In this document: positions 31,880 through 49,493 of the stretch, piece by piece
Numbering within the stretch: position 1 is the first letter of the stretch
Layout: each line of letters begins with the position of its first letter
Source of the DNA: Alphaproteobacteria bacterium
GTDB lineage: Bacteria > Pseudomonadota > Alphaproteobacteria > UBA828
Assembly: GCA_963667785.2 (NCBI GenBank)
Contig: CAXXMU010000006.1
Location: forward strand, 288,001 to 352,000
Direction of reading: 5' to 3'
Length of the DNA: 64,000 nt
Made by a program: the position numbers and the translations under genes
The notes under the pieces: generated by a model
Database searches by the model: none
Told to the model about the DNA's origin: nothing
Seen by the model: the letters and a program-made list of their open reading frames with translations, nothing else

Positions 31880-31954
<75 letters not shown>

Positions 31955-31955
<1 letters not shown>

Positions 31956-32433: not shown

Positions 32434-34881
32434 ATGGCTGAGGTTGGGGCCGATCCAGGCGGCTTGGGCGCCGGAGCGGCCGCGGGCGGCAGGCCGCTCC
32501 AGCCGTCGCTCTGGAGCGCCCTCCCCCACTTCCTGCCGCTTCTGATCTTTCCGCTGATCGTCAACGCCGCGCTGCAGGGCAGCTGGTGGATCGCGGCGCC
32601 CTTCGTCTTCTTCATGCTTGCGGGTCCCCTGGATGTCGCGCTCGGCGCGGACGAGAAGAACATGGACCCGGCGAAGACGCCCGAGAGGCGCCTGTTCTGG
32701 CACAATCTGCCGGTCTGGGGGTGGGCGTTTCTCTGGCCCCTGACCTTCGCCTTCACGCTCTGGCAAGTCCTCGTCGTCGGCCATCTGGCCCTTTGGGAGA
32801 CCGCGTTGATGGCGGTGGTGCTCGCGACCGAGGCCCAGGCGGTCTTCATCGTCGGCCACGAGCTGGTCCATCGGCGGCACGCGTGGGAGCGCCGCCTCGG
32901 CGAGTTTCTGCTCGCGTCGGCCTCCTACCCGCACTACGCCACGGAGCACATCTACATTCACCACGCCCTCGTCGGCACGCCGCTTGACGTGGGGTCTGCG
33001 CCCAAGGGCGAGAGCCTCTGGCGCTATTTCCCGCGCGAGCTGGCGAGCAACATCCTCGGCGCCTGGCGCGTCACCCGCGAGCGGCTGGCCCGCCGCCGCC
33101 TGCCCATGTGGCACTACAGCAATCCCTTCTGGCGGTACGGCTTCGAAACCGCTCTCTGGTACGCGCTGATCTACTGGATGGGCGATTGGTGGGCAGTCTT
33201 GATCTACGCCGTACTCTGCCTCGGCGTCGTGCTCTCGATGAAGATCAGCAACTACATCCAGCACTACGGCCTGCGCCGCATCCGCATGCCCAACGGCCGC
33301 TTCGAGAAGGTCCGGCCCCGGCATTCGTGGAGCGCCAGCTGCAGGTTCAGCAACTGGATGTTCTACAACATGCAGCGCCATCCGGATCACCACGCGGTGG
33401 CGAGCCGGCCGTATGCACTGCTGCAGCATCGCGGCGAGGACGAATCGCCGCAGTTGCCTGGGAGCTACGGCAAGATGTTCGGCTTGGCGGTGCGACCGAA
33501 GCGCTGGTTCCGGACCATGGACCCGCTGGTCGATCAGTGGCGCGCCCACTTCTACCCCGAGATCGAGGACTGGAGCCCCTACGACAGCGCGGTTGCCGAA
33601 GCCCGGCCGGAGGCCTTCGACGCCATCGTCGAGATCTTCGGCGCAGCGCCGCGGCTCGCCGGGCTGATCGAGCGAAGCCCGGAGCTGCTCGACAGCCTCA
33701 AAAGCCGGGAGTTTACCGATCTCGATCTTCCGGGCGGCTTCGGGCCGGACCTGGAATTCGAGGCGACCGCCCGCAGTGGCCTCACGCGCCTCTACTGGAC
33801 GCACGAGTTCGGCGTCGCGGAGATGACCGAACAGATCGCCGAAGCGCCCGTTCAGGATGTGAGCGACACGGCGGACTCCGTGCGCAACTGGTCGAACGAC
33901 AAGACCTTCCAGATCGGCATCCACACGCTGCGCGGCAATCTCACCCCGATCGAGGCGGGAACGGCGCTCGCGAATGTCGCGGAGGCCGCGATCGCCGCCG
34001 TGCTCGAGGCGGTCGACGAGGAGATCGCCGAGACCCGCGGCCCGCGCGGCGAGGGAGGGATCGCGGCGGTGGCTCTGGGCGATCTGGCAAGCCGGGACGT
34101 GGCGCCCGGCATGGCGCTGGACCTCCTGTTCGTGCATGAGGGCGGCTCCGCCGGCGAGCAGGAGGCGACGTGCCGCCGCTACCGCGATGCGCTCCGCCGG
34201 CTGTCGCGCGGCAGCCTGCTGTTCGCGGACGCGCCGCGCGGTGGAAAGGGACGGGCCGCGAGAGCGCTCTCGGAGTTCGCCGATGGCGGCTGGAGCGCCG
34301 GATCGGCAGACGCGCTACTGGAGCTGACACGCACGCGCTGCGTCTTCGAATCGGGCGAGAGCGGGATCGGCCGGCGCTTCGACGAGGCGCGGCAGGCGCT
34401 GCTCGGCCGCGGCGACGCGCACGCGGCGCTCGTCGCCGAGCTGCGGGGCGGAGCCGGCGGCACGGCCGCACCGGGGCTTGCCGCGCTCGACGAGATGACC
34501 GGCGGCCTCGACGACGTCGAGCGCACTGCCCGGCTTCTCCAGCTGACCGGCCCCGGAGACGCCGTGGACGATCCGGCGCCCAGGGCGGTGGCAGTCTTCG
34601 AAGTCGCGGGGGCGCATGGCGCGATCCCCGACGACAGCGCGGAGGCCTTGATCGAGGCCGCCACGATGTGGCGCACCCTGCGCGGCATTCTGCGGCTGAT
34701 TGCGGACGACGGCGTCGTGGACGGTGCAGCGGCGACCGGGGTCAAGGCCGCCATTGCGCAGGCCGCCGGGCTGGACGATTTCGACGCGCTCGCCAACACG
34801 ATCCGCGATAGGGCATCCCGCGCCGCAGCCGCGCGCGATGCAGTGAACGGAACGCGTGGCCCCGCTGCCGGCACGAGCTGA
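32434..34881 (+). CDS. AlkB-like membrane di-iron hydroxylase/desaturase fused to a degenerate GlnE-like adenylyltransferase domain
   Basis: His boxes HELVH, EHIYIHH, NYIQHYG, QRHPDHH; C-terminus ALGDLASRDVAPGMALDLLFV and GGLDDVERTARLLQL resemble GlnE. Confidence 0.75.
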   Translation: MAEVGADPGGLGAGAAAGGRPLQPSLWSALPHFLPLLIFPLIVNAALQGSWWIAAPFVFFMLAGPLDVALGADEKNMDPAKTPERRLFWHNLPVWGWAFLWPLTFAFTLWQVLVVGHLALWETALMAVVLATEAQAVFIVGHELVHRRHAWERRLGEFLLASASYPHYATEHIYIHHALVGTPLDVGSAPKGESLWRYFPRELASNILGAWRVTRERLARRRLPMWHYSNPFWRYGFETALWYALIYWMGDWWAVLIYAVLCLGVVLSMKISNYIQHYGLRRIRMPNGRFEKVRPRHSWSASCRFSNWMFYNMQRHPDHHAVASRPYALLQHRGEDESPQLPGSYGKMFGLAVRPKRWFRTMDPLVDQWRAHFYPEIEDWSPYDSAVAEARPEAFDAIVEIFGAAPRLAGLIERSPELLDSLKSREFTDLDLPGGFGPDLEFEATARSGLTRLYWTHEFGVAEMTEQIAEAPVQDVSDTADSVRNWSNDKTFQIGIHTLRGNLTPIEAGTALANVAEAAIAAVLEAVDEEIAETRGPRGEGGIAAVALGDLASRDVAPGMALDLLFVHEGGSAGEQEATCRRYRDALRRLSRGSLLFADAPRGGKGRAARALSEFADGGWSAGSADALLELTRTRCVFESGESGIGRRFDEARQALLGRGDAHAALVAELRGGAGGTAAPGLAALDEMTGGLDDVERTARLLQLTGPGDAVDDPAPRAVAVFEVAGAHGAIPDDSAEALIEAATMWRTLRGILRLIADDGVVDGAAATGVKAAIAQAAGLDDFDALANTIRDRASRAAAARDAVNGTRGPAAGTS

Positions 34882-34882
34882 C

Positions 34883-37210
34883 GTGACGGATCGCCCTGCC
34901 CGATCCGGTTCGCGCCGCGGCATCCTGACGACGACATCCGCTGCCGATCACGATCCGATCGAGCGGCCGGCGCTGACGCCGCACCTTGAATTCCGGTCGC
35001 TCGGTGAAGACCGGGCGCTGCTGGTGTCGGACTCCTTCAACACGTTGCTGCACGGGCGGATCCACTGCGATCTGCTGCCCCTTCTCGACGGCCGGCGCGC
35101 GCGGGACGAGATCGTTGCCGCCCTCGCGGGCGTCCATGCGGGCGCCGAGGTGGAGCAGGCGCTGACCTCGCTTGCGGCGAGGGGATACGTCGTCTCCGGC
35201 GCGCATGTCATGGACCGGTCCCGGGCGGCGTTCTGGTCCGCGCTGGGCGCCTCGCCCTGCCGGGCGGAGGAGCGGCTCGGCGCATCGACGGTCGCGGTCG
35301 AGGGCGACGACGGCCGTCTCGCCCGCGGCCTCGGCGCCATGGGCGTGACGGTGGGCGCAGACCGCCCGACGCTCATCGTCGTCGTCTGCGCGGACTATCT
35401 CGACGAGCGGCACGACTCCCTCAATCGCCGCCACCTTGCCGCACGCACGCCCTGGATGCTGGTCCGGCCCGCCGGCCTGCAGCCGCTCTTCGGACCCGTC
35501 TTCCGGCCGGCGGAGCAGGGCCCCTGCTGGGCCTGCCTCGCCTACCGGATGCGCGGCAATCAGGAGGTTCACACCTTCCTGCGCAATCTGGGCGGCGAGG
35601 ATGCGGCCTTCGTGCCCTTCGCCGCCGTGCCTACCGCCCTGGATGCGGTGGCGGGCCTCGCCGCGGCCGAGATCGCCAAGTGGCTGGTCCTGGGAGACGC
35701 GGCGACGCTCCACGAGAGGGCGATCTCGCTGGACCTCGCCAGCCTCGAGAGCGCGCACCATCCGACCATGCGCCGGCCGCAGTGCCCCGTCTGCGGCGAC
35801 GAGGCGCGCCATCGCGCCGACCGGCCGGCGCAGCCGGTGCGCCTCGGCCCGAGCCCGAAGGGCACGCGCAACAGCGGCGGCGTGCGCACCGTCTCGCCGG
35901 AGGAGACCCTCGCCCGTTACCGGCATCTGATCAGCCCGGTGAGCGGGATCGTCACATGGGTGGCGCGCACCACGGCGGAGTCCGACCCCTGGCTGCACGT
36001 CCACTGGGCCGGCAGCAATCTGGCGCTCCGGATCAGGAGCCTGAGCTCGCTCAGGCGCAGCCTGCGGAGCAAGAGCGCGGGCAAGGGGAGCACCGCGCAG
36101 CAGTCCGAGGTGAGCGCGCTCTGCGAGGCGATCGAGCGCTATTGCGGCGCCTTCCACGGCGACGAGATCAGGCGGCCGGCGCGGTTCTCGGATTTTGCGG
36201 CGGCCGGTGGCACGGAGGCGATCCACCCCAACCAGGTTCAGCTCTTCAGCGAACGGCAACTGGACCACGCAGACGAGATCAATGCCCGCGGCCATCCCTA
36301 CAACGTGGTGCCGCCGCGCTTCGATCCCGAGAAGGAGATCGACTGGTCGCCGGTGTGGTCGCTCACGCAAGGCCGGCACCGCTATCTCCCCACATCCATG
36401 CTCTACGGCATGACTCCCGAGCAGCGGGCGCATGCGGACCTCTGGGCGGATTCGAACGGATGCGCCGCCGGCAACACGCTCGAGGAGGCGATCCTGCAGG
36501 GGTTCTACGAGCTGGTGGAGCGCGATGCCGTCGCCATCTGGTGGTACAACCGGCTGCGCCTGCCCGCGGTGGAGCTCGGGAGCTTCGGCGACGACTACCT
36601 GTCCGCCGCGCCCGACTACTACCGGGGCCGCAATCGCGACATGTGGGTGCTGGACGCGACCTCAGACCTCGGCATCCCCGCCTTCGTCGCGCTCTCGCGC
36701 CGCACGGACGTCGAGAACGAGGACATCATCTACGGCGCCGGCGCGCACGCGGACCCGCACATCGCAGCGCTCCGCGCGGTGTGCGAGATGAACCAGTGCC
36801 TGACCTGGGTGCCAAGCCCGGGCGACGGCGACGGCCGCTACGGCGTGGACGATCCCATGTGCCTGTGGTGGTGGAAGAACGCGACGCTCGCGGACCATCC
36901 CTACCTGGCGTCGGCGCCGGATGCCACGCCGCGCCGCCGGGCGGACTATCCGGTTCCCGACGGCGCCGACCTGAGAGAGGACGTGGAGCGTTGCCGCGCG
37001 CTGGTCGAGGCCCGGGGCATGGAGTTCCTCGTTCTCGACCAGACCCGGGCGGACGTCGGGATGCCGGTGGTTCGGGTGATCGTGCCGGGCCTGCGCCACT
37101 TCTGGGAACGCTTCGCGCCGGGGCGGCTCTTCGACGTGCCGGTGGAGATGGGCCGGCGCGAGTCTCCCCTGGCGGAGTCCGACCTCAATCCGGTCCCGGT
37201 CATCGCCTGA
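34883..37210 (+). CDS. srpC: TOMM/proteusin fused E1-like + YcaO cyclodehydratase
   Basis: GPCWACL, RRPQCPVCG, SAGKG, CEAIERY, DSNGCAAGNTLEEAILQGFYELVERDA, C-terminal PVPVIA; probable GTG at 34883. Symbol assigned by recalled similarity to the sponge srp cluster. Confidence 0.92.
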   Translation: MTDRPARSGSRRGILTTTSAADHDPIERPALTPHLEFRSLGEDRALLVSDSFNTLLHGRIHCDLLPLLDGRRARDEIVAALAGVHAGAEVEQALTSLAARGYVVSGAHVMDRSRAAFWSALGASPCRAEERLGASTVAVEGDDGRLARGLGAMGVTVGADRPTLIVVVCADYLDERHDSLNRRHLAARTPWMLVRPAGLQPLFGPVFRPAEQGPCWACLAYRMRGNQEVHTFLRNLGGEDAAFVPFAAVPTALDAVAGLAAAEIAKWLVLGDAATLHERAISLDLASLESAHHPTMRRPQCPVCGDEARHRADRPAQPVRLGPSPKGTRNSGGVRTVSPEETLARYRHLISPVSGIVTWVARTTAESDPWLHVHWAGSNLALRIRSLSSLRRSLRSKSAGKGSTAQQSEVSALCEAIERYCGAFHGDEIRRPARFSDFAAAGGTEAIHPNQVQLFSERQLDHADEINARGHPYNVVPPRFDPEKEIDWSPVWSLTQGRHRYLPTSMLYGMTPEQRAHADLWADSNGCAAGNTLEEAILQGFYELVERDAVAIWWYNRLRLPAVELGSFGDDYLSAAPDYYRGRNRDMWVLDATSDLGIPAFVALSRRTDVENEDIIYGAGAHADPHIAALRAVCEMNQCLTWVPSPGDGDGRYGVDDPMCLWWWKNATLADHPYLASAPDATPRRRADYPVPDGADLREDVERCRALVEARGMEFLVLDQTRADVGMPVVRVIVPGLRHFWERFAPGRLFDVPVEMGRRESPLAESDLNPVPVIA

Positions 37211-37220
37211 GAGGCCGACA

Positions 37221-38522
37221 ATGAAGAGCCCCATCGACGCAGCAGAATTTCTCGTGTCGAAAGCCGGCGACGACGACGCGTTTCGTGACCGTCTGCGCGC
37301 AAACCCCACGGAAACGATCGAAACGGAGCTGGGCGTCACCCTTGACGAAGGTCATCGGATTCACGTGCACGAAGACAGCTATTCGGCGACCCATCTCGTG
37401 CTTCCGCCGCGCGAGAAATACACTCGAGAAGAACGGGAGGAAGCAAGAGGCGGTGCGGCGTCGCTCGAGTTTCTTCGCAAGACAATGCACGACCCCGCGC
37501 CTCCCCGTCGTCCGCCTGCGCCCGGACGGTCGCGCTCCCGAGAGATCGTTCCTACCGCCGAGGCACTGGCGAGAGAGGCCGAAGAAAGCATCGGTCTCGG
37601 TCTCGAATTCCTGACATCGACCATCGACGAATTCGGAGCCTGGCACTGCATCCGCTTCAACACCGCCGACCCGGACATTCCCCGGCACTTCGAAAGACCC
37701 CCCTTCGTTTCGGCTCTCTGCGTGCTTGCCTTGGAGCGTTGCCGTGACGCGCGCGCAAAGGCCGTGTGCGCTGCCACAAGGGCGTATCTCGTCGGCACGA
37801 TCGAATATCCCGGGCTATGGCGCTACTACCGCCATTTGCCGCAAGACCTCGACAGCACGGCGCTCTGTTCGCTCGTCCTCCGGGCTCATCCCTGGATTTT
37901 GCTGGGCAGAAACGTTCCGAAAATACTGGCCAATCGCGACGAGGAGGGTCGTTTCCTGACATGGCTCCTGGCGGAAGACGAGCCCACCGTCGTGTCGACC
38001 TTTCGCATCGAAGCCGACCCCGTGGTCAATGCGAACGTCATCGCCTATCTCGGCGACCACCCCGAAACCGAACCCGCCCAACGCTGGCTGGAAGCCCTGC
38101 TTGGCGAAGGCGGCGAGACGAATTCGTCCAAATGGTATCCGGATACCGTCGCGATCTACTATGCGATCAGCCGCGCCGTGGTTCGCGTGCAGCCTGCTCT
38201 CGATCGCCTGCGCCCGGTGCTCGCGGAGCGTATCCTGGGTTTGCGCGACGGGGCGGGAGAATTCGGCAACGTTCTCCAGACCGCCCAGGCCGCGTCGGCG
38301 CTCCACAACGTCGGACGCCTCGAAAACGATCACGCCAAACGCCAGGCGGAAACGTTGATCAGTTTGCAAGGTAACGACGGTAGCTGGCCGGAGCTTCTCG
38401 CCTTCGGCGACCAGTCCGTCAAGTGGGGTACGGCAGGCCGGATAGGGCACGGCTCCGAAGCCGTGACGTCCGCGTTCTGCATCGAAGCTCTGGCGCGTCT
38501 CGTCGAGATATTGCGGACTTGA
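37221..38522 (+). CDS. NHLP-leader domain fused to a prenyltransferase/squalene-cyclase-like alpha-barrel domain
   Basis: Residues 1-78 align without gaps to the precursor leader (FR..L.A.P, ELG, VHE, HL.LPP, GG); later PQDLDSTA, DPVVNANV, LQGNDGSWP (QW repeat). Confidence 0.7.
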   Translation: MKSPIDAAEFLVSKAGDDDAFRDRLRANPTETIETELGVTLDEGHRIHVHEDSYSATHLVLPPREKYTREEREEARGGAASLEFLRKTMHDPAPPRRPPAPGRSRSREIVPTAEALAREAEESIGLGLEFLTSTIDEFGAWHCIRFNTADPDIPRHFERPPFVSALCVLALERCRDARAKAVCAATRAYLVGTIEYPGLWRYYRHLPQDLDSTALCSLVLRAHPWILLGRNVPKILANRDEEGRFLTWLLAEDEPTVVSTFRIEADPVVNANVIAYLGDHPETEPAQRWLEALLGEGGETNSSKWYPDTVAIYYAISRAVVRVQPALDRLRPVLAERILGLRDGAGEFGNVLQTAQAASALHNVGRLENDHAKRQAETLISLQGNDGSWPELLAFGDQSVKWGTAGRIGHGSEAVTSAFCIEALARLVEILRT

Positions 38523-38624: not shown

Positions 38625-39743
38625 ATGGACGTTGACGAGGCAGTCACGCTTACCCAGGACCGTCTTGCCCGAGAGGGCGGCACCATGGCCGACCTGCTCG
38701 GGCACTTTCGAAGCGGGATCTCGCCGGTTCTCATCGGCGATCCGGAATGGGAGGACATACTCGACTGCGCCGGGAAACTTCCCATCACCATGGGCGCTCT
38801 GCCGTTCGGCTTTGAACTGCCGCTGCATGCGCGCAGGCCACAGGCCGATTTCGGTGTTTCGCTCGCGAGCGGAACCAGAACGGCGGCGTTTTTCGAGGAA
38901 CGCGCTCGGACCGACCGGTCGGATGGAACCGCGAAAGCGATCATGCAGTTGTTCAGACAAATGGATGACGAAGACTCACCGCTGCGTGACATTGTCGGCC
39001 GCAAGTTGATGCTGGAATTCGACATCGGCTCGGCGCGGGAAGGCAAGACATCGCTTCCGGGCATGTTCCTGCGGCCGGGCGAACGCCCCATCATCGGCGC
39101 CCGTGGTCAGGCGGACGATGTCGCCATGGTGGTCGACGCGCTCGCTTCCTGCGTCGGCTGGGAGGTGACCGACGCCGAGCGGGCGACCGTCGAACGCGTT
39201 TACCTGGCGCAGCCGGGAGAGACGCGCATGGATTCGTTCGGTGTGTTCCCGTCTCGCTCGCGGGCGATCCGCCTGGCGATCATGGGCTTCAGATCGGGGC
39301 AGGAAACATGTTCCTATCTTGAAGACACGGGCTGGCCGGGCCGAATCCAGACCGTCGCCTCCGTGATTGCGCGCTTCAGGGAGCGCGCGAACATCGTCAG
39401 GATCGGGGCGAACATCGACGTGCAGGAAGAGGGTCTCGGTCCAACGCTCGGCCTCACGCTCATCGTCAAGCAGAGATACACGAAGGATTCGCGCTATTGG
39501 CTCGACGGCCTGACCGATTGGGACCCGTTCCTGGCGGCACTGAGCCACGAGGACCTCGTCGTTCCGGAGAAGCTTGCGGCGCTTGCTGACTGGGTCTCGA
39601 AACCGACAACGCTTTTTGCGAAGTCCGGGCAGTATGTACTGCTGCGCGGCATTCACCACATAAAGCTTGTCATATCCGGAAATCGGCTCCGACACGCGAA
39701 AGCCTACGTGTTCATGGTGCTTTCCGGAGCGGTCTCGGCTTAG
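38625..39743 (+). CDS. Hypothetical protein, putative ABBA-type peptide/aromatic prenyltransferase
   Basis: FGFELPL..ADFGV, LMLEFD, IRL, GPTLGL, HHIKLV..AKAY pattern recalls prenyltransferase domains seen with RiPP terpene cyclases; unverified. Confidence 0.45.
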   Translation: MDVDEAVTLTQDRLAREGGTMADLLGHFRSGISPVLIGDPEWEDILDCAGKLPITMGALPFGFELPLHARRPQADFGVSLASGTRTAAFFEERARTDRSDGTAKAIMQLFRQMDDEDSPLRDIVGRKLMLEFDIGSAREGKTSLPGMFLRPGERPIIGARGQADDVAMVVDALASCVGWEVTDAERATVERVYLAQPGETRMDSFGVFPSRSRAIRLAIMGFRSGQETCSYLEDTGWPGRIQTVASVIARFRERANIVRIGANIDVQEEGLGPTLGLTLIVKQRYTKDSRYWLDGLTDWDPFLAALSHEDLVVPEKLAALADWVSKPTTLFAKSGQYVLLRGIHHIKLVISGNRLRHAKAYVFMVLSGAVSA

Positions 39744-39849: not shown

Positions 39850-40101
39850 CTACCAGCAGCAGCACAGCCCGGCCGAGATGGCCTCGAGCTGCTCCTCGCT
39901 GATGTTTGGGTCCGGCGGCAACGCGAGATGCACCGTCTGCATGTCGCTCTCATGGACCTTAATCGTCATCGACTCGGGAATGGTGATGCCCAGCTCCTCG
40001 GAGATGGTGCTCTTCGGATCTGCGAGAAGCTGCTGCCTGAAATCCGCATCCAGAGCAGACTTCTCGACTATCTGCTTCAGCATTTCGTCGCCACTTCTCA
40101 T
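39850..40101 (-). CDS. srpE: Proteusin/NHLP RiPP precursor, 78-aa leader plus core LCCCW
   Basis: DADFRQQLLADPK..ELG..VHE..HLALPP..EQLEAISAG|LCCCW; ATG at 40101 after AAGGGAG. Symbol from recalled sponge srp precursor with core LCCCW. Confidence 0.93.
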   Translation of the reverse strand: MRSGDEMLKQIVEKSALDADFRQQLLADPKSTISEELGITIPESMTIKVHESDMQTVHLALPPDPNISEEQLEAISAGLCCCW

Positions 40102-40255
40102 GGCAATGCTCCCTTGGTTCACGCACGATACCGAGTAACACGATCATTTTTCCCGGTCAAGCGCCTGAAGTAACGGAATTTATTATGGTATCGGCAAGTT
40201 TATCTTATGACGCCGGAATGCCTGGTGTGGCGTACGGCGGCCGCGCGCCGGCTTC

Positions 40256-42598
40256 TCAGGACTCGGTCGCGGCCCGCTTCGCAGATCGCCGGTCGAGCGC
40301 CGTCAGCAGCGCCGGCAAGAGCGTCAGGTCGGCAACGAGCGCAAAGGCGATGATCAGCGCGGTAAGGACCCCGACCTGCGCGGTCGGAACGAACGGAGAG
40401 AACACGAAGATGAGAAAACCGGCGACGAGCACGACCGTCGTCGTGAACAGGGCACGGCCGCTCGTGTCGAAGGCGTAGCGCACCGCCTCGTCCGGGTCAT
40501 GGCCGAATTCATGCCGCGCACGGCGGTACTTGCTGAGGAAATGCACCGTATCGTCGACGACGATGCCTATGGTCATGGCCACCACGACAGACAGCGAAAG
40601 ACCGACCTGTCCGACCGCCAATCCCCAGACGCCGAAACCCAGCACGGCGGGAAGCAGGTTGGGAACGATGCTTATCAGGCCCAGCCGCAGCGAGCGTAGA
40701 GCGAAGAGGAGAATGGCGGAGATGGCCAGGAGCACGACCAGCGTCCCGATCAGCACCGCCTGGATGTTGCGCTGCCCGATGTAGGCGAACAGCGCCGAGG
40801 GCCCGGTGCTGTTCACGCTGGCGACATGCGGCGCGTTTTCCTTCAGCCAGGTCTCGGCACGTTCGTTCAGTTCGAGCACATCCTTCGAATAGAGGGTCTC
40901 GGTCGATACCGACATGCGCGTGGCCGACCTGGACCGGTCGATCTGGTTGTTCACGTCGAGACCGTCCGGCAGCGAAAGCTCGTAGAGGAGCAGATATTGC
41001 GCTGCCAGCTCCCGGCTTTCCGGAATCCCGTAAGCGCCCGGGTCGTCGCCGTGCATGCTCTTGTTGAGTTGCCGGAAGGTATCGGTGATGACCGACACGT
41101 GGCGTACCGGTGCCTGCTCCCGGTACCAGTCGGCGAAGTTCGCGACGTCGGCGAGGAAAAGCGGATCCGTGGCGCCGCCTTCGCTGGATGCATGCAGCGA
41201 GTATTCGAGCAGGGTATTCCCGCTCAAGCGCTCATCCATGAAATCCGTGTCCTGCCTGAACTCGACGCTCTCGTCGAAGAAATGGACCAGAACGTCATTG
41301 AGATCGTTGCGCGGAATGCCCAGAGCCATCGCCACCACGACCACCAGCCATCCCGCGAACAGCGCCTTCCTGTGGTGCAGCACGAAATCCGCCACGCGGT
41401 TCATCGAGAGCCCGCGGAAGAGCCGGCGCTCCTTCGGCGCACGCATGGGGAGAAGCGAGAGGATGGCCGGCAGGAAGGTGACGGAAAGTATGAACGACGC
41501 GCCAATGCCGATGGCGACGAAGTTGCCGAGATGGCGGTAGGGCGGAACCTCGGAAAAGTTCATGCTCAGGAAGCCGAGCGCCGTCGTGAGACTCGCCAGA
41601 AACACCGGATGCAAGTTGAGCCGGACGGCTTCGACGATGGCATCGCGCTTGGAATCCCCGGCTCGGAGACGCTGCTGCAACGCCACCAGCAGGTGCACGC
41701 AGTTCGCCACGACAATCATCAACACGATGGTGGGGGCCGGGGAGACGGGCGGCGAAAAGGGCAGGCCGAACCACACGCCGAGGCCCACCGACACGAAAAT
41801 CGAGAAGACGATCACCATCCCGGTCGTCGCCACCCCCGCCCAGCGCCGTGTCAGGAGGCCGAGGATCACGGCCATGAGCAGAAGGCTCGCGGGAAGAAAG
41901 ATCATCTGGCTGCTGAGCGAGGCTTCCACGAAGGTCTGGTTGACCATGACCGTCCCGACGACGCGGAGGTCCATGCCCGGGAATCGCTCTTCCGCCTCCG
42001 CCGCGATCGATCTGGCGAATTCGGCAACCTCGGCGACGGCCTCCAGCAGGCCGTCCTCCGGCAGCTCGACGGTGACGTTCACGACGCTGACATCGCCGTT
42101 CAGGGCCAGGATGCTGCCCGCGATGCGCGGGTCGGACAAAGCGATGGCACGGACGTGCTCCCGCGCTTCGGCTCGGGTCAGCTCCTGGGGATCGACGAGG
42201 TCCCGCACGTACAGGTCGTCGCCGTCGGCGGTCGTGTATTGAAAATTGGCGAGTGAGTCGACGCGCCGGGAATAGGGTGTCTGCCAGGCGGCCTTCGTCA
42301 GCCAGACGGCCGCAGAGAGTGCGTCTTGCGAGGTGGCGTCGCCATCGTCCGGCACGATCAGGAAGGCGATGTTCTCGTGCTTGCCGTACGTATTCTCCAG
42401 CTCCTCGAGCGCCAGAAGCTGCGGATTGTCTTCGTCGAAGAAGATTCGATAGTTGGCAGAGAACTCGAGCTGGGTAACGCCCAGCGTCGCGACCGCAACC
42501 ACGAACACCGTGGCCGCGATGACCCACCAGCGAGCCGCAAGCACCCGCTCGGCAAATCGCTTAGCGAATTGCTCTCTTGCTATCTCGGGCTTATCCAC
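40256..42598 (-). CDS. MMPL/RND-family exporter
   Basis: Two TM bundles with periplasmic loops; ASLTTALGFLS, TIGIVVDDTVHFL, ADLTLLPAL. Confidence 0.88.
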   Translation of the reverse strand: MDKPEIAREQFAKRFAERVLAARWWVIAATVFVVAVATLGVTQLEFSANYRIFFDEDNPQLLALEELENTYGKHENIAFLIVPDDGDATSQDALSAAVWLTKAAWQTPYSRRVDSLANFQYTTADGDDLYVRDLVDPQELTRAEAREHVRAIALSDPRIAGSILALNGDVSVVNVTVELPEDGLLEAVAEVAEFARSIAAEAEERFPGMDLRVVGTVMVNQTFVEASLSSQMIFLPASLLLMAVILGLLTRRWAGVATTGMVIVFSIFVSVGLGVWFGLPFSPPVSPAPTIVLMIVVANCVHLLVALQQRLRAGDSKRDAIVEAVRLNLHPVFLASLTTALGFLSMNFSEVPPYRHLGNFVAIGIGASFILSVTFLPAILSLLPMRAPKERRLFRGLSMNRVADFVLHHRKALFAGWLVVVVAMALGIPRNDLNDVLVHFFDESVEFRQDTDFMDERLSGNTLLEYSLHASSEGGATDPLFLADVANFADWYREQAPVRHVSVITDTFRQLNKSMHGDDPGAYGIPESRELAAQYLLLYELSLPDGLDVNNQIDRSRSATRMSVSTETLYSKDVLELNERAETWLKENAPHVASVNSTGPSALFAYIGQRNIQAVLIGTLVVLLAISAILLFALRSLRLGLISIVPNLLPAVLGFGVWGLAVGQVGLSLSVVVAMTIGIVVDDTVHFLSKYRRARHEFGHDPDEAVRYAFDTSGRALFTTTVVLVAGFLIFVFSPFVPTAQVGVLTALIIAFALVADLTLLPALLTALDRRSAKRAATES

Positions 42599-42620: not shown

Positions 42621-45563
42621 TCACGCGATCTGCCTCCTGACCAGTTCCCTGAATACGCCGTCGGCCTCCATGAGTTCGGCGAAGGAGCCGCTCTGCACGA
42701 CTCTTCCGGCCTGCAATACGTAGATTCGGTCGGCCTGTTCCAGCGTGGACAGGCGGTGGGCGATGACGAGCCGGGTGGACGTCAGGGCGGCGAGGTTGCG
42801 CATGACCTTGGCCTGGTTCTCGTTGTCCAGCCAGTTGGTGGCCTCGTCGAACAGCATGATCCGCGGGCTGCCAATGACCGAGCGGGCGATCGTCAGGCGC
42901 TGGCTCTCGCCGCCGGACAGCACCGCCCCGCTGGTGCCGACCATGGTCATCATGCCCATGGGCATGCTCTTGATTTCGGCCTCGAGCTCGGCGATCCGGA
43001 CCGCCGTCCAGACCTCCTCGCTGGCCACGTCGTCGTGGTGGCCGACCAGGTTATCCCAAAGATCCTGTGGATGGAGTCCGACCGATTGCGGTACCGCGCC
43101 GATTCTCCGGCGCACCTGCCTCAGGTTCAGGTGCCTCAGATCGCGGCCGTCGTAATACACCGCGCCGGCGGTAGGCCGGTCTATGCCAAGCGCGAGCCGG
43201 AAGAGCGTGCTCTTGCCGGCCCCGGACTCGCCGGCAATCGCGACGAATTCCCCGGCACGGGCGCGAATGGTGACGTCGTCGAGAACCAGCGGGCCATCAG
43301 GATCGTAACGGAAGGAGATGCGGTCGAACAAAATGTCGCCGCCCAAGTACTCGACCGGCTCTCCTTCGAGCTCGGTTTCAGGAGCCGCGGCGAGCAGCGG
43401 ACGCATCTGATCGAACGCCGGCAGCATGGCGACAATGGTGCCGAAGGACTCTCCGAGGCGGGCGATGGCAGACTGGAACGTGATGAAGACGATGTAGACG
43501 ACGAGAAAATCGCCGACCGGAACGGCCCGATCGCCCACCGCGATCACCGCGAAGAGTAGCACCCCGCCGGCGAGAAACGGGAGCGCGGCACCGAACGCCC
43601 GTGAATGCCCCTCCAGCGCATTCAGCTCCAGCTCCGCCCGCTTCTGCTCGCGATAGTCTCGCGCCCAGATCGCGAACGCCGATCCTTCCGCGTTTTCCAC
43701 ACGCAGCTTGGCGATGCCGCCCACGATCTGGAACAGCCGGCCGGCGACGCGACGCGCCGCACCGATCATCCGCCCATAGGGCGAAATCTGGCGCAACCCG
43801 AGGAGGACGGTGACCAGCAGCGACGCCAGGCTGAAGGCGAGCGCAATGGCTCCGAGAGTCGCATCGTAGAAGAAGATGACGCCGAAGACCGGAAGCAGGA
43901 AAACGATCGACAGCAGGCTGTCGGCGACGATTCCCTGCACACCGTCGCGAAGGGTCTGGAACGTCATTCCCGACATGGCCAGATCGCCGGCCGGATGGCG
44001 GCGCAGGACGCTCGGCGGCAAGCGCATGAGGCGGTCCCACACGGCAGCTTCGACCCGCGACGCCGAGCGCCCCTCGAGCCGCATCATGGCCGTGCTCTGA
44101 GCCATGTGCAGCAGTGCACCGAGCAGGCCGAACACCGCCACCACCACGGCAACAACGTAGAGCGCTCCGACGTTTCCGCCCGTCGCGACGTGACTTGCGA
44201 CGAAGCCAAGCGCGATCGCCGGCAGCAGCTTGATCAGGCCGCCCGGAAGACCGGCAATCACCAGCCGCGCCAGATCCGGGGCCGATCCATGCAGGGCGAT
44301 ACCCAGCAGGTCTGCCGGTTTCACGTTCCCCGACGGCAATGGCCGATAGAACATCCAGGCTTCGTCGCCCAGCGCATCGGCGCGCTCCGCCGTCATCCGA
44401 ACGCTGCGCTTGCTGACCGGGTCGACTTCCCGGTAGCGCCCGAGCATCCCCGGCAATAGCGCTACGGGCCGGCCGTCTTCGGCGCGGAATGCCAGCAACG
44501 CGTTGCTGTCGCCGCGCCACCAGTCGCCCTCGTCCTTGAGCCGCACGCGCCGGGCACGCACGCCCGACGCATCGAGAACGTCAACGAGGCCGATCGGAGA
44601 TTCGGACGGTCCCGAGCGCGCCGGAATCCTGAAATCGATGCCCTCACGGCGGCCGATGATGTGCAGGGCATCCGTGAGGGACGTGTCCTCGACGCTTGCA
44701 TCCCGTTCGATCGGACGATCGTAGATGTTGTAGAGCCGCTGCCGCGCAGCTCGTTCTGCCGTCCGGCGGCTGGTGGTTCGCGCGCGTTCGAGATTCGCCT
44801 CGTCGACCATCGCCAGCCGGCGGTTGAGGCGCTCCAGGGCGAGAGCAACCGCGTGAAAGGAGGCGAGCGCGGGCAGCAGCTTGCCCGTTCGCGCCAGAGC
44901 CTCGGTCGACTTGCCGGAAAGAGTCGCCTCGTCGAACAAGGTGAGCCAGCTCGTCCTCGTCAGCGCTATCACGGCGTCGTGCGGACCGCCGGTCCCGGCA
45001 AGCTCCGACTGGTCGACGACATCCATGAACAGGCTCGTGCCGGGTGGCGGTTGGGATACCCACACCACGCCGCGCCGCACCGACAGCGTGCAGGGGGCGA
45101 GCGCCCGTGTCATGCCGGGCTCGGCCAGCGCGGTCGGACGCGGGAGGCGACCCGCGAAACGCGACAACGTCTCGGTAATGGCGTTCAGCCATGTGTTGGT
45201 CTGCTCCGCCAGCTCCGACGGCCGAACCTCCGACAGCAGGGATGTCGGCAGGCGTCTCAGGAGAGTACCGGGCTGTCCCTTGGCGATCAGGCTGAGCGTC
45301 GTGCCTTCGTCGTCGTCTCCTTCATCCGGTGCGACGCCCGGCACCAGCCATCCCGCGTCGCGGCGCAGCAGGTGCTGCGGCGCCGCCTGCTCGACGCCGT
45401 CCTTGAATTCGACCAGGAACAGATTGACGGCACCCTGATCGATGAACCAGACACTGTCCGGGTCGTCGAGCGTCACGGGCAGATTGCCCGCGCAGGGCAC
45501 CGACGTGCCGGCGCGCTCGGCGAGCGCGGCCAACGAGGTATATGCCGTCCCGGCGCCCTGCAT
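42621..45563 (-). CDS. NHLP bacteriocin-system ABC transporter (permease/ATPase, no peptidase)
   Basis: N-terminal cNMP-like region, WWRGD..LLAF, GESGAGKST, LSGGESQR, FDEAT; ATG at 45563. Confidence 0.88.
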   Translation of the reverse strand: MQGAGTAYTSLAALAERAGTSVPCAGNLPVTLDDPDSVWFIDQGAVNLFLVEFKDGVEQAAPQHLLRRDAGWLVPGVAPDEGDDDEGTTLSLIAKGQPGTLLRRLPTSLLSEVRPSELAEQTNTWLNAITETLSRFAGRLPRPTALAEPGMTRALAPCTLSVRRGVVWVSQPPPGTSLFMDVVDQSELAGTGGPHDAVIALTRTSWLTLFDEATLSGKSTEALARTGKLLPALASFHAVALALERLNRRLAMVDEANLERARTTSRRTAERAARQRLYNIYDRPIERDASVEDTSLTDALHIIGRREGIDFRIPARSGPSESPIGLVDVLDASGVRARRVRLKDEGDWWRGDSNALLAFRAEDGRPVALLPGMLGRYREVDPVSKRSVRMTAERADALGDEAWMFYRPLPSGNVKPADLLGIALHGSAPDLARLVIAGLPGGLIKLLPAIALGFVASHVATGGNVGALYVVAVVVAVFGLLGALLHMAQSTAMMRLEGRSASRVEAAVWDRLMRLPPSVLRRHPAGDLAMSGMTFQTLRDGVQGIVADSLLSIVFLLPVFGVIFFYDATLGAIALAFSLASLLVTVLLGLRQISPYGRMIGAARRVAGRLFQIVGGIAKLRVENAEGSAFAIWARDYREQKRAELELNALEGHSRAFGAALPFLAGGVLLFAVIAVGDRAVPVGDFLVVYIVFITFQSAIARLGESFGTIVAMLPAFDQMRPLLAAAPETELEGEPVEYLGGDILFDRISFRYDPDGPLVLDDVTIRARAGEFVAIAGESGAGKSTLFRLALGIDRPTAGAVYYDGRDLRHLNLRQVRRRIGAVPQSVGLHPQDLWDNLVGHHDDVASEEVWTAVRIAELEAEIKSMPMGMMTMVGTSGAVLSGGESQRLTIARSVIGSPRIMLFDEATNWLDNENQAKVMRNLAALTSTRLVIAHRLSTLEQADRIYVLQAGRVVQSGSFAELMEADGVFRELVRRQIA

Positions 45564-48614: not shown

Positions 48615-49493
48615 TTGCGGATGTTCCCTGGGCACGAAACCGGCGACAGGCGCGTTGCCCACCACGGCTGGGCCAGGCGCTTTAGGTTCTCCCTGCGCGC
48701 GTCGTCGGCAGTCCTGATTCTGATGCTGGCGGGCTTATGCCTGCAATTTGTGGAAGCCCTCGCCCAGGACGAAACGCCGGAGGAAAAGGGCCTCAGGATT
48801 GCGCGTGAAGCCAGCGCCCGCAACGACGGTTTCGGCGACTTCACCGCCGAGATGACGATGGTGCTGCGCGATCGCCACGGTCGGGAAAGTGTCCGTCAAA
48901 TGCGCCTCAAGGTGCTGGAGGTGCCGGAAGACGGCGACAGGAGCCTGTTCGTGTTCGATCAGCCGCGAGACGTGCAGGGAACCGCCCTGCTCACCCATGC
49001 CCACGTCAACGCGCCGGACGACCAATGGCTCTATCTGCCGGCCCTGAAAAGGGTGAAGCGCATCAACGCCTCGAGGCGTTCGGGGGCCTTCATGGGAAGC
49101 GAGTTTTCATACGAAGACATGAGCTCGCAGGAGGTGGACGAATACAACTACAAGTACCTTCGCGACGAGCCCTGCGGGGAACTGACCTGTACGGTGACCG
49201 AGCAAATTCCCCTGGACAAGGAGTCCGGATACAGCCGCAGAATCGCTTGGCAAGACACGATCGAGCTTCGAATCTGGAAGATGGAGCTTTACGACCGAAA
49301 GAACTCGCACCTGAAGACCCTTACACTCGTGGGTTATCAGCAGTATCTGGATCGGTACTGGCGGGCGGGGGAGCAGACCATGGTGAACCACCTCACCGGA
49401 GCGAGCACGGTTCTCAAGTGGTCAGGTTTTCAGTTTCGCAACAATCTTAGCGAGAGCGAATTTACCCAGACGGCACTTAGACGCGTGCGCTGA
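48615..49493 (+). CDS. LolA-like outer-membrane lipoprotein-sorting protein
   Basis: PRDVQGTALL..DDQWLYLPALKRVKRI..FMGSEFSYED; true start probably downstream. Confidence 0.85.
   Translation: MRMFPGHETGDRRVAHHGWARRFRFSLRASSAVLILMLAGLCLQFVEALAQDETPEEKGLRIAREASARNDGFGDFTAEMTMVLRDRHGRESVRQMRLKVLEVPEDGDRSLFVFDQPRDVQGTALLTHAHVNAPDDQWLYLPALKRVKRINASRRSGAFMGSEFSYEDMSSQEVDEYNYKYLRDEPCGELTCTVTEQIPLDKESGYSRRIAWQDTIELRIWKMELYDRKNSHLKTLTLVGYQQYLDRYWRAGEQTMVNHLTGASTVLKWSGFQFRNNLSESEFTQTALRRVR

Follow-up and report, generated by a model that had tools for sequence, protein, structure and literature searches.

A degenerate NHLP leader copy fused to a predicted class II terpene cyclase in an srp proteusin cluster

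Why would an enzyme begin with what resembles the leader of the ribosomal peptide encoded beside it? In the window, by which we mean the whole 64,000-nucleotide stretch that was analysed, the open reading frame at 37221-38522 on the plus strand translates into 433 amino acids without an internal stop codon. The initial annotation had described this frame as an NHLP leader fused to a terpene-cyclase-like barrel, and the observation is confirmed: a natural fusion is borne out by sequence, by Foldseek and by conservation in homologs. The Pro/Arg-rich stretch reported after the leader was found at residues 91-108, and both reported motifs, DLDSTA and LQGNDGSW, are in place. The parts of the gene are listed below.

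37221-37454, plus strand: NHLP-leader-like module, residues 1-78, a degenerate paralog of the SrpE leader (29/78 identities; TIGR03793 E 5.3e-10, below cut-off).
37455-37514, plus strand: conserved segment AASLEFLRKTMHDPAPPRRP, residues 79-98, where the core peptide would be (dN/dS 0.15, mean majority frequency 0.86).
37515-37556, plus strand: true flexible linker, residues 99-112 (dN/dS 0.94).
37557-38522, plus strand: predicted single-domain (beta) class II terpene cyclase barrel, residues 113-433 and stop codon (AF2 pLDDT 85.9, Foldseek, profile).
37845-37862, plus strand: DLDSTA, residues 209-214, putative general-acid motif with D211 as the middle Asp (alignment to drimenol synthase).
38364-38387, plus strand: LQGNDGSW, residues 382-389, QW-like motif (conservation, alignment to squalene-hopene cyclase).

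The window carries the published srp proteusin cluster; srp biosynthetic gene clusters are reportedly the subject of Nguyen et al., JACS 2021. An NHLP precursor with the core LCCCW (SrpE), a YcaO cyclodehydratase (SrpC) and a Trp halogenase (the brominase SrpI) occur together around the fused gene, in the following company.

32434-34881, plus strand: 815-aa fusion of a fatty-acid-desaturase-like membrane domain (PF00487, E 9.6e-26) and a GlnE-like nucleotidyltransferase (PF03710, E 3.4e-7).
34856-37210, plus strand: SrpC, with wHTH/RRE, E1-like and YcaO cyclodehydratase parts (PF02624, E 1.9e-97; TIGR03604, TIGR03882).
38625-39743, plus strand: 372-aa ABBA-type aromatic prenyltransferase-like protein (AF2 fold and Foldseek; without a Pfam or NCBIfam match).
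39850-40122, minus strand: SrpE precursor, 90 aa, NHLP leader and core LCCCW, joined as AISAG/LCCCW (TIGR03793, 70.7 bits).
40256-42598, minus strand: MMPL/HpnN-like RND transporter (PF03176, E 1e-35; TIGR00921 and TIGR03480 below their cut-offs).
42621-45674, minus strand: second NHLP-type export ABC transporter subunit (TIGR03797, E 1.6e-201).
45563-47773, minus strand: NHLP-type export ABC transporter with a C39 peptidase domain (TIGR03796, E 2.8e-251; PF03412).
50853-52127, plus strand: SrpI-type flavin-dependent Trp halogenase (PF04820 above cut-off at G000:C6:338883-339953, which is 50883-51953 of the window).

The core LCCCW is that of published SrpE (PMC10858898, in part; here and below, "in part" marks a source available in part). 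Clusters of this kind are found in sponge symbionts of many phyla, with the precursor among the most highly transcribed genes (bioRxiv 10.1101/2023.06.09.544420, in part), and the window shares with them the core, SrpC, SrpI and the spread across sponge-symbiont phyla. The available text speaks of srp products solely as brominated azol(in)e peptides arising through thiazoline formation and bromination (PMC10858898; PMC10286304, both in part), whereas the window as read here adds genes for a cyclase and a prenyltransferase-like protein. The words "prenyl", "terpen" and "cyclase" are absent from the available part of PMC10858898, and our literature search found no work tying srp or NHLP leaders to a terpene cyclase or to a leader-enzyme fusion; the founding srp paper, srp supplementary figures or Hubrich et al. 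may already label the gene.

A lost stop codon or an assembly error could also yield such a frame, and this candidate was ruled out by homologs, full-length loci, stop-free frames and junction-spanning contigs. The fused protein has 1085 homologs, and the 120 that were listed measure 432-466 aa at 71-76% identity. When genomes were searched with an alignment of 12 rows, each of the 80 best loci matched nearly the full length of the fused protein, under record titles naming many phyla; the match began at query residues 1-10 in 78 of them and at residue 29 in one, and 73 gave complete stop-free frames of 429-435 aa. The initial annotation had proposed checking reads for a lost stop codon, and contigs of three public runs do span the leader/linker/barrel junction without indels, two of them with 0 differences (these runs may be the source sample) and one, from another study, with 29 differences in 831 bases. 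It had also proposed that its reading would fail if homologs kept leader and enzyme as separate genes. Separate genes do occur in distant relatives, which are stand-alone barrels of 28-48% identity, but the 80 best loci all carry the fusion. At one locus (L128) an NHLP open reading frame ends two codons before the barrel frame and in the same frame, a split arrangement that shows the origin of the fusion and not an artefact. In a quick midpoint-rooted tree the fused clade is monophyletic (SH-aLRT 100) and nested in a clade that holds stand-alone cyclases from NHLP contexts. Sister clusters combine a prenyltransferase-like gene, a stand-alone barrel, one or more NHLP precursors and the same ABC exporters, and lack YcaO. 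The 815-aa desaturase-like/nucleotidyltransferase gene accompanies the fused gene in 61 of the 80 loci.

Sequence resembling SrpE was also found within seven longer proteins. The three inspected (P0391, P0394 and P0395) carry the SrpE-like part C-terminally, and their long frames are most likely over-extended gene calls; three proteins of seven are weak evidence either way on the existence of other leader-first enzymes.

What, then, is the enzyme? Sequence and models together indicate that residues 113-433 form a class II terpene cyclase barrel of one domain, its general-acid Asp intact. The Foldseek comparison with terpene cyclases that had been suggested at the outset matched the C-terminal domain to the beta domain of the drimenol synthase AsDMS (E 1.2e-12; 9m7d_B, prob 1.00), to MstE (7.9e-9; 6sbd) and to squalene-hopene cyclase, or SHC (4.6e-6), with target-normalised TM-scores up to 0.72. 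The AF2 model adopts the alpha/alpha-barrel fold of a beta domain, at pLDDT 84-98 in most 10-residue blocks and 63 and 74 in two, and a profile search of PDB sequences met 9mhs_B across the whole barrel (E 7.9e-29). With AsDMS (9mhs, 9m7d) and MstE (6sbb-6sbg) the barrel shares the fold, a single domain without a gamma domain, and a DLD(T/S)T general-acid motif with the same middle Asp. Its identity to them is low (about 20% and about 16%, respectively), they act on FPP or a prenylated benzoate and not on a peptide, and AsDMS is fused to a HAD phosphatase where the barrel of the window is fused to a leader-like module.

The middle Asp, D211 of DLDS (residues 209-212), aligns with D323 of 9mhs in DLD(323)TT; the mutant entry 9m7d (D333N) has Asn there. 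In drimenol synthase D323 is the catalytic general acid, in the motif DXDT (PMC12232559, in part), and by alignment DLDS would be a DXDD-type motif of the same kind. D211 is invariant in 48 of 48 family members, and D209, D211 and S212 are each found in all 74 fused homologs; S212 stands at the third Asp of the classical DXDD, and an active enzyme with Thr at that position exists. One clear copy of a QW-type repeat was seen, in which Q383 and G387 are invariant and W389 is at least 90% conserved among the 48 members, aligned to the QW-repeat region 552-596 of SHC. Cysteine chemistry of the LanC or CaaX type on the CCC core was considered and rejected: the 48-member alignment has no Cys or His in its invariant or 90%-conserved columns, hence no conserved Zn ligands, and neither a LanC nor a prenyltransferase beta chain appears among the best 50 Foldseek matches listed for the barrel.

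It seems very unlikely that the barrel is no prenyl cyclase at all, acting instead as a binder or chaperone for a hydrophobic peptide or in another acid-initiated reaction. Such a role would fit the Ser in place of the third Asp, the available descriptions of srp products as nothing other than brominated azol(in)e peptides, and the want of a prenyl donor gene in the cluster, where no polyprenyl diphosphate synthase was found (the two of the genome lie on other contigs). The general-acid Asp and the QW-like motif are nonetheless invariant, a partner with a prenyltransferase fold is co-conserved, and relatives of the barrel adjoin polyprenyl-synthetase-like and UbiA genes. Among five distant stand-alone loci examined, four have a polyprenyl-synthetase-like neighbour and one a UbiA neighbour. 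Six long relatives were scanned, one of which has a UbiA domain, one a P450 domain and one a weak Trp_DMAT match (E 1.9e-4, under cut-off); the long relatives P0186, P0187 and P0201 (about 650-700 aa) belong to the same family as the barrel.

The co-conserved partner is the 372-aa protein encoded directly downstream, which looks like an ABBA prenyltransferase by its modelled fold. Its AF2 model (pLDDT 87.8) is built of repeated alpha-beta-beta-alpha units, and the best 50 Foldseek matches listed for it are all ABBA aromatic prenyltransferases (best 1.6e-6), at modest TM-scores of 0.38-0.54. At the sequence level it has no Pfam or NCBIfam match, and phmmer against PDB sequences returned 0. The protein atlas names prenyltransferases as its best clusters (Trp_DMAT 0.90), a lead only, as recognition was low (1278). 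A sequence-level tie to the N-terminal halves of the long relatives was sought and rejected, since BLASTP, hhalign and phmmer were all empty (BLASTP against P0186 and P0201, nothing below E 0.6; hhalign against the N-terminal half of P0186, probability 1.3% and no profile match). The prenyltransferase likeness of this gene is missing from the initial annotation. Its family, the predicted prenyltransferase-fold unit, is co-located with the MstE-like cyclase unit in 71 of the 80 loci; the two genes are adjacent in the window, and other genes lie between them in most loci. A prenyltransferase-like neighbour would give the cyclase its substrate. A candidate acceptor, Trp, is present in the core of all 63 srp precursors and all 8 sister-cluster precursors.

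Turning to the N-terminal module, BLASTP pairs its residues 1-78 with residues 8-85 of the 90-aa precursor at 29/78 identities and 0 gaps (E 4e-15), which reproduces the ungapped identity first counted by hand. The NCBIfam leader_NHLP model TIGR03793 matches residues 9-70 of the fused protein (E 5.3e-10, 39.0 bits), under its 50.9-bit cut-off, and the true precursor SrpE passes the same model at 70.7 bits. PF02979 (nitrile hydratase alpha chain) matches at E 8.8e-4, under the gathering score, many fused homologs carry a precomputed PF02979 annotation, and phmmer gives a weak match of the module to 8tb1_A (E 0.12). The structured nucleus of the module is thus homologous to the nitrile hydratase alpha chain and to known NHLP leaders, among them SrpE, to which it is 37% identical, and MprE7 (NMR structure 8TB1). 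Residues common to module and SrpE cluster in this alpha2-alpha3-beta nucleus; the alpha1 helix diverges, and the consensus sequences agree at 27 of 78 positions. The AF2 monomer model is of low confidence at residues 52-67, where pLDDT stays under 50.

Double-glycine leaders require hydrophobic residues at -4 and -7. In the window copy the module ends in GG78 opposite AG of the precursor, with Ala at -4 and Arg at -7 opposite Ile and Leu. Both changes had been pointed out from the window alone, and they prove invariant: G(-1), R(-7) and A(-4) are each present in 74 of 74 fused homologs. The GG end, reported at the same time, holds for the window copy and fails as a family feature; because the -2 residue is Thr in 54 of the 74 homologs and Gly in 2 (Ala in 13), GG belongs to the window copy. 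Unlike NHLP leaders, the module lacks an L(X)4L motif, hydrophobic residues at -4/-7, a conserved double-glycine site and a short core; it scores under the curated cut-off of the family and precedes an enzyme, with linker and enzyme adding a further 355 residues. As R(-7) and A(-4) are invariant and GG occurs in 2/74, the module, judged from these alignments, is not a working leader. The alpha1 face and L(X)4L of NHLP leaders are needed for contact with the YcaO RRE (PMC12455567), L(X)4L is also needed for SrpI, and the two features engage the YcaO RRE, SrpI and C39-type peptidases (PMC12455567; PMC10858898, in part). The diverged sites therefore appear to be exactly the leader features that these three use.

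The same residues bear on whether the module works as a genuine double-glycine leader, exporting the barrel through the C39/ABC system or being cut off after G78, a reading we find scarcely credible. The invariant G78, the N-terminal position, Gly or Ala at -2 in 15 of the 74 homologs and the exporter genes of the cluster are what it can claim. Against them stand the invariant R(-7) and A(-4) and the prevailing T(-2), a cargo that would be a folded 35-kDa barrel, and the lack of any use outside the cell for a cyclase whose prenylated substrate is cytosolic. Past the supposed cut, moreover, residues 79-98 are as constrained as the enzyme.

This constraint was estimated from 400 random pairs drawn from the 74 fused genes, which gave dN/dS of 0.24 for residues 1-78, 0.15 for 79-98, 0.94 for 99-112 and 0.16 for the barrel. 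By this measure the leader-like module is under purifying selection, the segment at 79-98 is held as tightly as the barrel, and the linker evolves neutrally at a nearly fixed length (14 residues in 66 homologs, 13 in 6 and 12 in 2). These values weigh on the reading of the module as a structural relic, in which loss of a stop codon fused precursor to cyclase and the module merely stabilises or solubilises the barrel, with no part in recognition or control. The split arrangement at L128 shows how easily such a fusion arises, stand-alone relatives work without a module, and cis packing on the barrel would be compatible with a module of structural use only. We nevertheless consider a relic unlikely, given that dN/dS is 0.24 among genes from many phyla, that charged residues are invariant at positions once used for recognition, and that segment 79-98 is strongly constrained. 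A structural role of the module is hard to separate from our preferred explanation.

Where the module sits was addressed by complex prediction. With ESMFold2, module plus segment (residues 1-98) and barrel (113-433) scored 0.72 against 0.44 for the best of 3 controls, and one of the three docking runs scored just 0.53; the mark applied lets through 58 of 80 solved complexes against 2 of 110 mismatched pairs, and is a rough guide here because the alignment was our own. The runs share at least 71% of their contacts, with partner pLDDT of at least 77. The predicted interface takes in residues 3-8 and 90-97, and on the barrel side the loops at 220-232 and 276-282, beside the catalytic helix. Conservation hardly sets the interface residues of the module apart, at 0.82 against 0.80 for its other residues. 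The prediction supports docking of the leader-like module on its own barrel. The initial annotation had instead placed the module on the YcaO/halogenase/transporter complex, or seen it as a trans-activator of partners or an export signal, and these proposals do not hold up well, as the recognition features have diverged and complex prediction favours the own barrel.

Of those proposals, docking in trans deserves to be weighed with some care. Here the module would bind SrpC, the brominase or the prenyltransferase as a leader does, and so tether a complex or activate a partner. The NHLP fold has been kept under purifying selection, and SrpC could not be purified alone and gave only partial SrpE modification in E. 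coli (PMC10286304, in part), poor behaviour that would make sense if a partner were lacking. ABBA prenyltransferases are able to hold long leaders by their structured nucleus, as MppC does (PMC12715784, in part), and the covalent joining of the two units in NctPC and ChrPC makes a non-covalent bridge plausible in this cluster. However, the L(X)4L motif and alpha1 face that such binding needs differ from SrpE (PMC12455567; PMC10858898, in part), position -7 is an invariant Arg, and the sole in silico pairing that was run, module with own barrel, passed; on balance we think trans-docking rather improbable. Still less probable is pairing of leader with leader, in which the module would bind the nucleus of the SrpE leader and replace an RRE in substrate recognition by the cyclase. 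Both partners have NHLP folds with their shared residues in the alpha2-alpha3-beta nucleus, and the srp cluster encodes no stand-alone RRE according to the available text of PMC10858898 (in part). Dimerisation of NHLP leaders is, however, not reported in PMC12455567 or in the available parts of PMC10858898 and PMC12537861, where "dimer" refers to enzymes only, and the predicted cis docking takes up much of the module surface.

The reading we prefer, to which we assign about an even chance, is that the fused protein serves the srp pathway as its terpene cyclase, half of a split prenyltransferase-cyclase pair, with a built-in leader docked on its own barrel. The fused protein and the 372-aa protein would be a split form of NctPC and ChrPC, bifunctional prenyltransferase-cyclase RiPP maturases reportedly described by Hubrich et al. 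in Chem in 2024. NctPC consists of an ABBA P domain and an MstE-like C domain and geranylgeranylates Trp before cyclising the chain, and ChrPC does likewise (PMC13290415, in part). As in these enzymes, where the acceptor is a Trp of a ribosomal peptide, the window pair would set an MstE-like class II cyclase to work with a prenyltransferase; the P domain of NctPC, like the 372-aa neighbour, is an ABBA-type barrel with little resemblance to known examples. The window differs in that P and C are not one polypeptide, the prenyltransferase-like protein being a separate gene at 38625-39743, and in that the C protein has an N-terminal NHLP-leader-like module, the pathway adds YcaO and a brominase, and the core is five residues long.

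In the proposed pathway SrpC would form thiazolines and SrpI would brominate the C-terminal Trp, both published steps, before the prenyltransferase puts an isoprenoid chain on the Trp of the LCCCW core. D211 would then protonate the terminal double bond of the chain and start a cationic cyclisation to a polycyclic terpene, and the lipophilic product would leave through the C39/ABC exporter and MMPL/LolA-like proteins. This suggests that the cluster product carries a cyclised lipid. The module itself may have arisen through fusion of a stand-alone cyclase gene with a precursor gene immediately ahead of it, and would since have lost the features for uptake by the YcaO RRE, the brominase and the C39 peptidase, a loss that would leave it neither cleaved nor modified. 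Its likely role, as the models have it, is to fold back beside the catalytic helix of its own barrel as a built-in leader. It could hold the cyclase permanently leader-bound, so that the enzyme works on a five-residue core whose leader other enzymes hold, or it could be a gate that the leader of the substrate displaces. Stand-alone sister cyclases do without such a module, which is thus not needed for the chemistry. Points against the preferred reading are the lack of a donor synthase in the cluster, the prenyltransferase call from fold only, and S212 in place of the third Asp.

Precedents exist for joining leader or core and enzyme in one polypeptide, as in the window protein. Leaders have been fused by engineers to a lanthipeptide synthetase and to a cyanobactin heterocyclase, and the leader in cis can activate the enzyme on leaderless substrates. 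Borosins such as OphMA have the core fused to a methyltransferase, and the enzyme modifies its own tail. In contrast to the engineered proteins, the window fusion is natural and carries a degenerate leader copy, and the cluster still has a separate precursor gene complete with leader; unlike in borosins, nothing suggests that the window protein modifies its own tail. The comparison suggests that nature fused leader to enzyme as engineers did. We further entertain, as a possible if doubtful extension, that this is a natural "leader-in-cis" enzyme, in which a captured leader copy, stripped of all that the exporter and the other pathway enzymes recognise, serves as a permanent intramolecular activator or gate, and that the srp end product is a peptide-terpenoid hybrid with a cyclised isoprenoid on bromotryptophan.

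If the two genes are a cyclase-prenyltransferase pair, one would expect the C-terminal Trp to gain the mass of one isoprenoid chain and the product to be hydrophobic and directed to the membrane, and this reading would also account for the lipid-type exporters in the cluster. As far as the partly available literature goes, only two srp enzymes have been studied so far, and srp clusters are among the most widespread and most highly transcribed of sponge microbiomes; if the proposal is true, their end product differs from the brominated tri-thiazoline pentapeptide studied to date. With its fold kept and its known contact points lost, the module amounts to a rare experiment of nature in the reading of large folded NHLP leaders, and may reveal a third mode of leader-enzyme engagement. 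Should the leader act in cis, the fused protein would be nature's version of engineered leader-enzyme fusions, and it offers a ready design for leader-independent peptide-terpene biocatalysts.

The open frame at 37221-38522 (+) encodes a 433-aa protein and lies in a ribosomal-peptide cluster with the following genes.

32434-34881: fusion of a fatty-acid-desaturase-like membrane domain and a GlnE-like nucleotidyltransferase, 815 aa
34856-37210: wHTH/E1-like/YcaO cyclodehydratase (SrpC)
37221-38522 (+): fused leader-like/cyclase gene
38625-39743 (+): 372-aa protein without a family match
39850-40122 (minus): 90-aa NHLP precursor (SrpE), C-terminus ...AISAG/LCCCW
40256-42598: MMPL/HpnN-like RND transporter
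beyond the precursor: two NHLP-type ABC exporters, one bearing a C39 peptidase domain
48615-49493: LolA-like protein
49493-50713: DUF1302-like protein
50853-52127: tryptophan halogenase

[quoted passage not shown] The MMPL/HpnN-like, LolA-like and DUF1302-like proteins, alongside the peptide exporters, are typical of traffic of lipids or hydrophobic cargo to the outer membrane; their genes are present within the flanks of only 30, 17 and 8 of 80 related loci, respectively. In the 815-aa protein, a di-iron desaturase/alkane-hydroxylase-like membrane domain occupies residues 121-349 and the GlnE-like region residues ~460-800, and its gene shares its last 26 bases with the beginning of the longest SrpC frame; speculatively, it might oxidise the lipid part or the thiazolines. 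A tRNA-Lys (CTT, 31880-31955) lies directly 5' of the cluster, and G+C is 0.60-0.69 over 37-53 kb compared to 0.70-0.74 in the flanks (28-32 kb, 56-58 kb), with the SrpC gene at ~0.74. The G+C dip, the tRNA and the cross-phylum spread of 70%-identical copies fit a horizontally moving island.

The C-terminal part of the fused protein had been called a terpene-cyclase-like barrel in the initial annotation, and structure and profile comparisons bear this out. In an AlphaFold2 model of the protein (pLDDT 85.9) the barrel is confident, and Foldseek searches of it against the PDB ranked class II terpene cyclases first, led by the beta domain of the drimenol synthase AsDMS (1.2e-12) and the monodomain cyclase MstE (7.9e-9), together with two short myxobacterial “squalene-hopene cyclases”, a “prenylcyclase”, drimenyl diphosphate synthase and squalene-hopene cyclase. 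A profile built from 48 members of the family aligned with AsDMS across the entire barrel (E 7.9e-29), placing the family motif on DLD(323)TT, and the available text of PMC12232559 describes DXDT as the general-acid motif of AsDMS, with D323 as the catalytic general acid and a strictly conserved middle Asp. The corresponding D211 does not vary in 48/48 family members or 74/74 fused sequences; the residue following it is an unvaried Ser in the fused clade, whereas AsDMS has Thr. Zinc chemistry of the LanC-like or CaaX type on the three Cys is ruled out, as the family has no Cys or His that is conserved throughout.

The wider family, clustered at 50%, comprises 1173 matching representatives (504 at E <=1e-10), with few fused forms (P0121 at 68%, P0122 at 56%, and fragments). 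Among the 150 representatives listed, most are stand-alone barrels of ~300-350 aa, with 30-48% identity to residues 113-430. Six long relatives were scanned, of which one has a UbiA prenyltransferase domain, one a P450 domain, one a weak Trp-DMAT-like region below the cut-off and one a weak sulfotransferase match; in five distant stand-alone loci with scanned neighbours, a polyprenyl-synthetase-like gene adjoins the barrel in four and a UbiA gene in one. These fusions and neighbours place the barrel family in isoprenoid contexts. In three soil-type loci (L124, L131, L160), the barrel is flanked on one side by a divergent polyprenyl-synthetase-like gene and followed by a conserved 438-448-aa protein lacking any Pfam match. 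The relative P0180 carries a P450 domain, and a sulfotransferase-like domain is fused to, or follows, the barrel in some others (P0173, 642 aa; L141, 1807-2811); such partners hint at further tailoring of cyclised prenyl groups.

The N-terminal part resembles the precursor leader as first described. Residues 1-78 pair without gaps with residues 8-85 of the precursor, 29 positions being identical (E 4e-15), and the NHLP leader model matches residues 9-70 at E 5.3e-10, under the curated cut-off. DLDSTA (209-214), LQGNDGSW (382-389) and the Pro/Arg-rich stretch are likewise all present, and positions -4 and -7 carry A and R in place of I and L, respectively. The terminal GG78 is true of the window copy but not general, as 54 of 74 fused homologs have T at position -2, 13 have A and only 2 have G; G(-1), R(-7) and A(-4) show no variation in this set. 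Consensuses of 64 SrpE leaders and 74 fused modules have 27/78 positions in common, concentrated in the alpha2-alpha3-beta nucleus (D.DFR..LLA.PK.TI..E.G.T...I.VHE...H..LPP), while alpha1 differs and I(-12)...L(-7)...I(-4) of the leaders has become F/L/Y...R...A. PMC12455567 and PMC10858898 describe two contact elements of NHLP leaders, an L(X)4L motif by the cleavage site, through which leaders bind the YcaO RRE, the surface of SrpI and C39-type peptidases, and one face of alpha1 that binds the YcaO RRE and sets leader specificity; SrpI can do without the folded nucleus. As judged from its sequence, the fused module has kept the NHLP fold and lost the features read by the other pathway enzymes and the exporter. 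This loss speaks against the canonical forms of the roles initially proposed for the module, namely docking onto the YcaO/halogenase/transporter complex, activation of partners in trans, or routing of the enzyme for export.

The fusion is real, old and under selection. A search of 5.8 billion proteins yielded 1085 relatives, the best 120 of which are 432-466 aa long with 71-76% identity and at least 99% query coverage. In a locus search taking one genome per species, all of the 80 best loci matched the fused form over nearly its whole length, starting at query residue 1-10 in 78 and residue 29 in one, and 73 provided complete stop-free frames of 429-435 aa. Record titles include Binatia, Nitrospira, Gamma- and Alphaproteobacteria, Bryobacterales, Gemmatimonadota, Latescibacterota, Nitrospinota and others, and one names the sponge genus Spongia. 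Counted within 10-kb flanks, with many contigs ending sooner, the fused gene is accompanied by the 372-aa gene in 71 of the 80 loci, SrpC in 68, SrpE in 63 (core LCCCW in 62, LCCSW in one), the desaturase fusion in 61, the two exporters in 55 and 50, and SrpI in 48. Gene order differs from locus to locus, so the fused gene is a core member of the cluster and not a passenger. In one 332-aa protein (P0394), the first ~240 residues of the desaturase-like protein are joined in frame to a complete SrpE ending LCCCW, which points to a rearranged locus or to an artefact of gene calling or assembly.

Nei-Gojobori dN/dS over 400 random pairs out of 74 genes was 0.24 for the leader-like module (residues 1-78), 0.15 for a conserved segment (79-98), 0.94 for a tether (99-112; length 12-14 residues) and 0.16 for the barrel (113-433). 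The architecture is therefore a constrained N-terminal module, in which a 20-residue segment follows the leader-like fold at the core's place, a neutral tether and an enzyme. A lost stop codon at the junction had been raised as a concern; contigs from three public runs cross it without insertions or deletions, two with 0 differences, which may stem from the source sample, and the third, labelled sponge metagenome and stemming from a separate study, with 29 differences in 831 bases.

The neighbouring 372-aa protein has about 990 close relatives (the best 120 at 78-97% identity); Pfam, NCBIfam and PDB sequences gave no match. The predicted model (pLDDT 87.8) consists of repeated alpha-beta-beta-alpha units, for which the 50 best Foldseek ranks are all aromatic ABBA prenyltransferases, including EpzP, AmbP1, NphB/Orf2, PagF, LimF, IptA, DMATS enzymes, CloQ and PatF (E from 1.6e-6, TM-scores 0.38-0.54); a protein-atlas look-up points weakly in the same direction.

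Simpler sister clusters, in a genome of the same genus (G015) and metagenome contigs L096, L097, L098, L112, L113 and L149, contain a 372-aa homolog (26-39% identity) with a stand-alone barrel directly after it, then one NHLP precursor or two and the same pair of ABC exporters; they have no YcaO. In L097, the stop of the homolog overlaps the start of the barrel. Each of the eight precursors found carries a leader, if not always a proper GG site, and a short Trp-containing core, although some contigs are close kin and independent cases are fewer than eight. Trp cores of six to nineteen residues occur in the YcaO-free clusters of L097 (4668-5226), L098, L096 and L013 (19260-19565), the products of which are candidate prenylated, cyclised peptides. 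In a rapid maximum-likelihood tree, rooted at the midpoint and with SH-aLRT as the only support measure, the fused sequences form one clade (100) nested within a clade (95) of NHLP-context stand-alone cyclases, and the long prenyltransferase-cyclase fusions and the polyprenyl-synthetase- and UbiA-context barrels occupy the other half. Contig L128 represents the split state, with an 87-aa NHLP ORF (362-625) two codons before, and in frame with, the barrel ORF (632-1627), followed by a homolog of the 372-aa protein; fusion needs the loss of one stop codon only. The NHLP ORF ends ...DTRWI, with one stop codon and two codons to the cyclase ORF, and tblastn reads through both at 30% identity to the fused protein; possible readings of the arrangement are a precursor gene, a recent split and a candidate for read-through.

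A precedent for such a pair is NctPC, described in the available text of the 2026 review PMC13290415 (original Hubrich et al., Chem 2024) as a bifunctional enzyme whose ABBA-type prenyltransferase domain bears little similarity to known ones and whose cyclase domain resembles MstE; NctPC geranylgeranylates a Trp of a ribosomal peptide and then cyclises the chain; ChrPC does the same with a trans-IDS-like P domain and C10-C20 donors (PMC13290415). Whereas these enzymes hold P and C in one protein, the srp gene pair would be, by analogy, a P + C system split over two genes, with the Trp of LCCCW as its target. The 372-aa protein would prenylate the C-terminal Trp, the fused protein would cyclise the chain in an acid-initiated reaction, and the lipophilic product would leave via the lipid-type transporters of the cluster. 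We are highly confident in the identity of the parts, and the prenyl-cyclase role of the fused protein is somewhat favoured.

In order to place the module, the complex of residues 1-98 with the protein's own barrel (113-433) was predicted with ESMFold2, using a 41-sequence fused alignment per chain. The score was 0.72 compared to 0.44 for the best of three controls, above a mark reached by 58/80 solved complexes and 2/110 mismatched pairs, counts that are approximate here because a custom alignment was used. A caveat is that the two chains are halves of one protein. Contact agreement between runs was at least 71% and partner pLDDT at least 77, with one run at 0.53. The predicted interface joins module residues 3-8, 11, 33-47, 62-67 and 90-97 to barrel residues 144-146, 154-157, 195-197, 220-232 and 276-282, in loops after the catalytic helix (209-219) and the VVNAN helix. 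Searches found no solved structure resembling the pair, making memorisation by the model an unlikely source of the result; conservation of the module's interface residues barely exceeds that of its remainder (0.82 vs 0.80). The model supports, but does not show, binding of the module to its own barrel, where it may fold back as a built-in leader. As a permanent occupant, it would fill a leader-binding surface inherited from stand-alone ancestors and free the cyclase from the substrate's own leader, which would be an advantage in acting on a five-residue core when SrpC, SrpI, the prenyltransferase and the C39 domain all compete for its leader; as a gate, it would instead be displaced by the substrate's leader. 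Docking in cis as the module's function is tentative, and the case for the parts, the prenyl-cyclase role and cis docking taken together is evenly balanced.

The cluster, the leader family, the cyclase fold and prenylate-then-cyclise chemistry are already known. The words “prenyl”, “terpen” and “cyclase” are absent from PMC10858898, and the available text of the srp papers covered (PMC10858898, PMC10286304 and bioRxiv 10.1101/2023.06.09.544420) deals with thiazoline formation and bromination only. On sequence, models and context, and against the literature covered, two things appear to be new: a tailoring enzyme naturally fused to a degenerate copy of a leader and kept across phyla, and the view of srp as a pathway to a peptide-terpenoid product.
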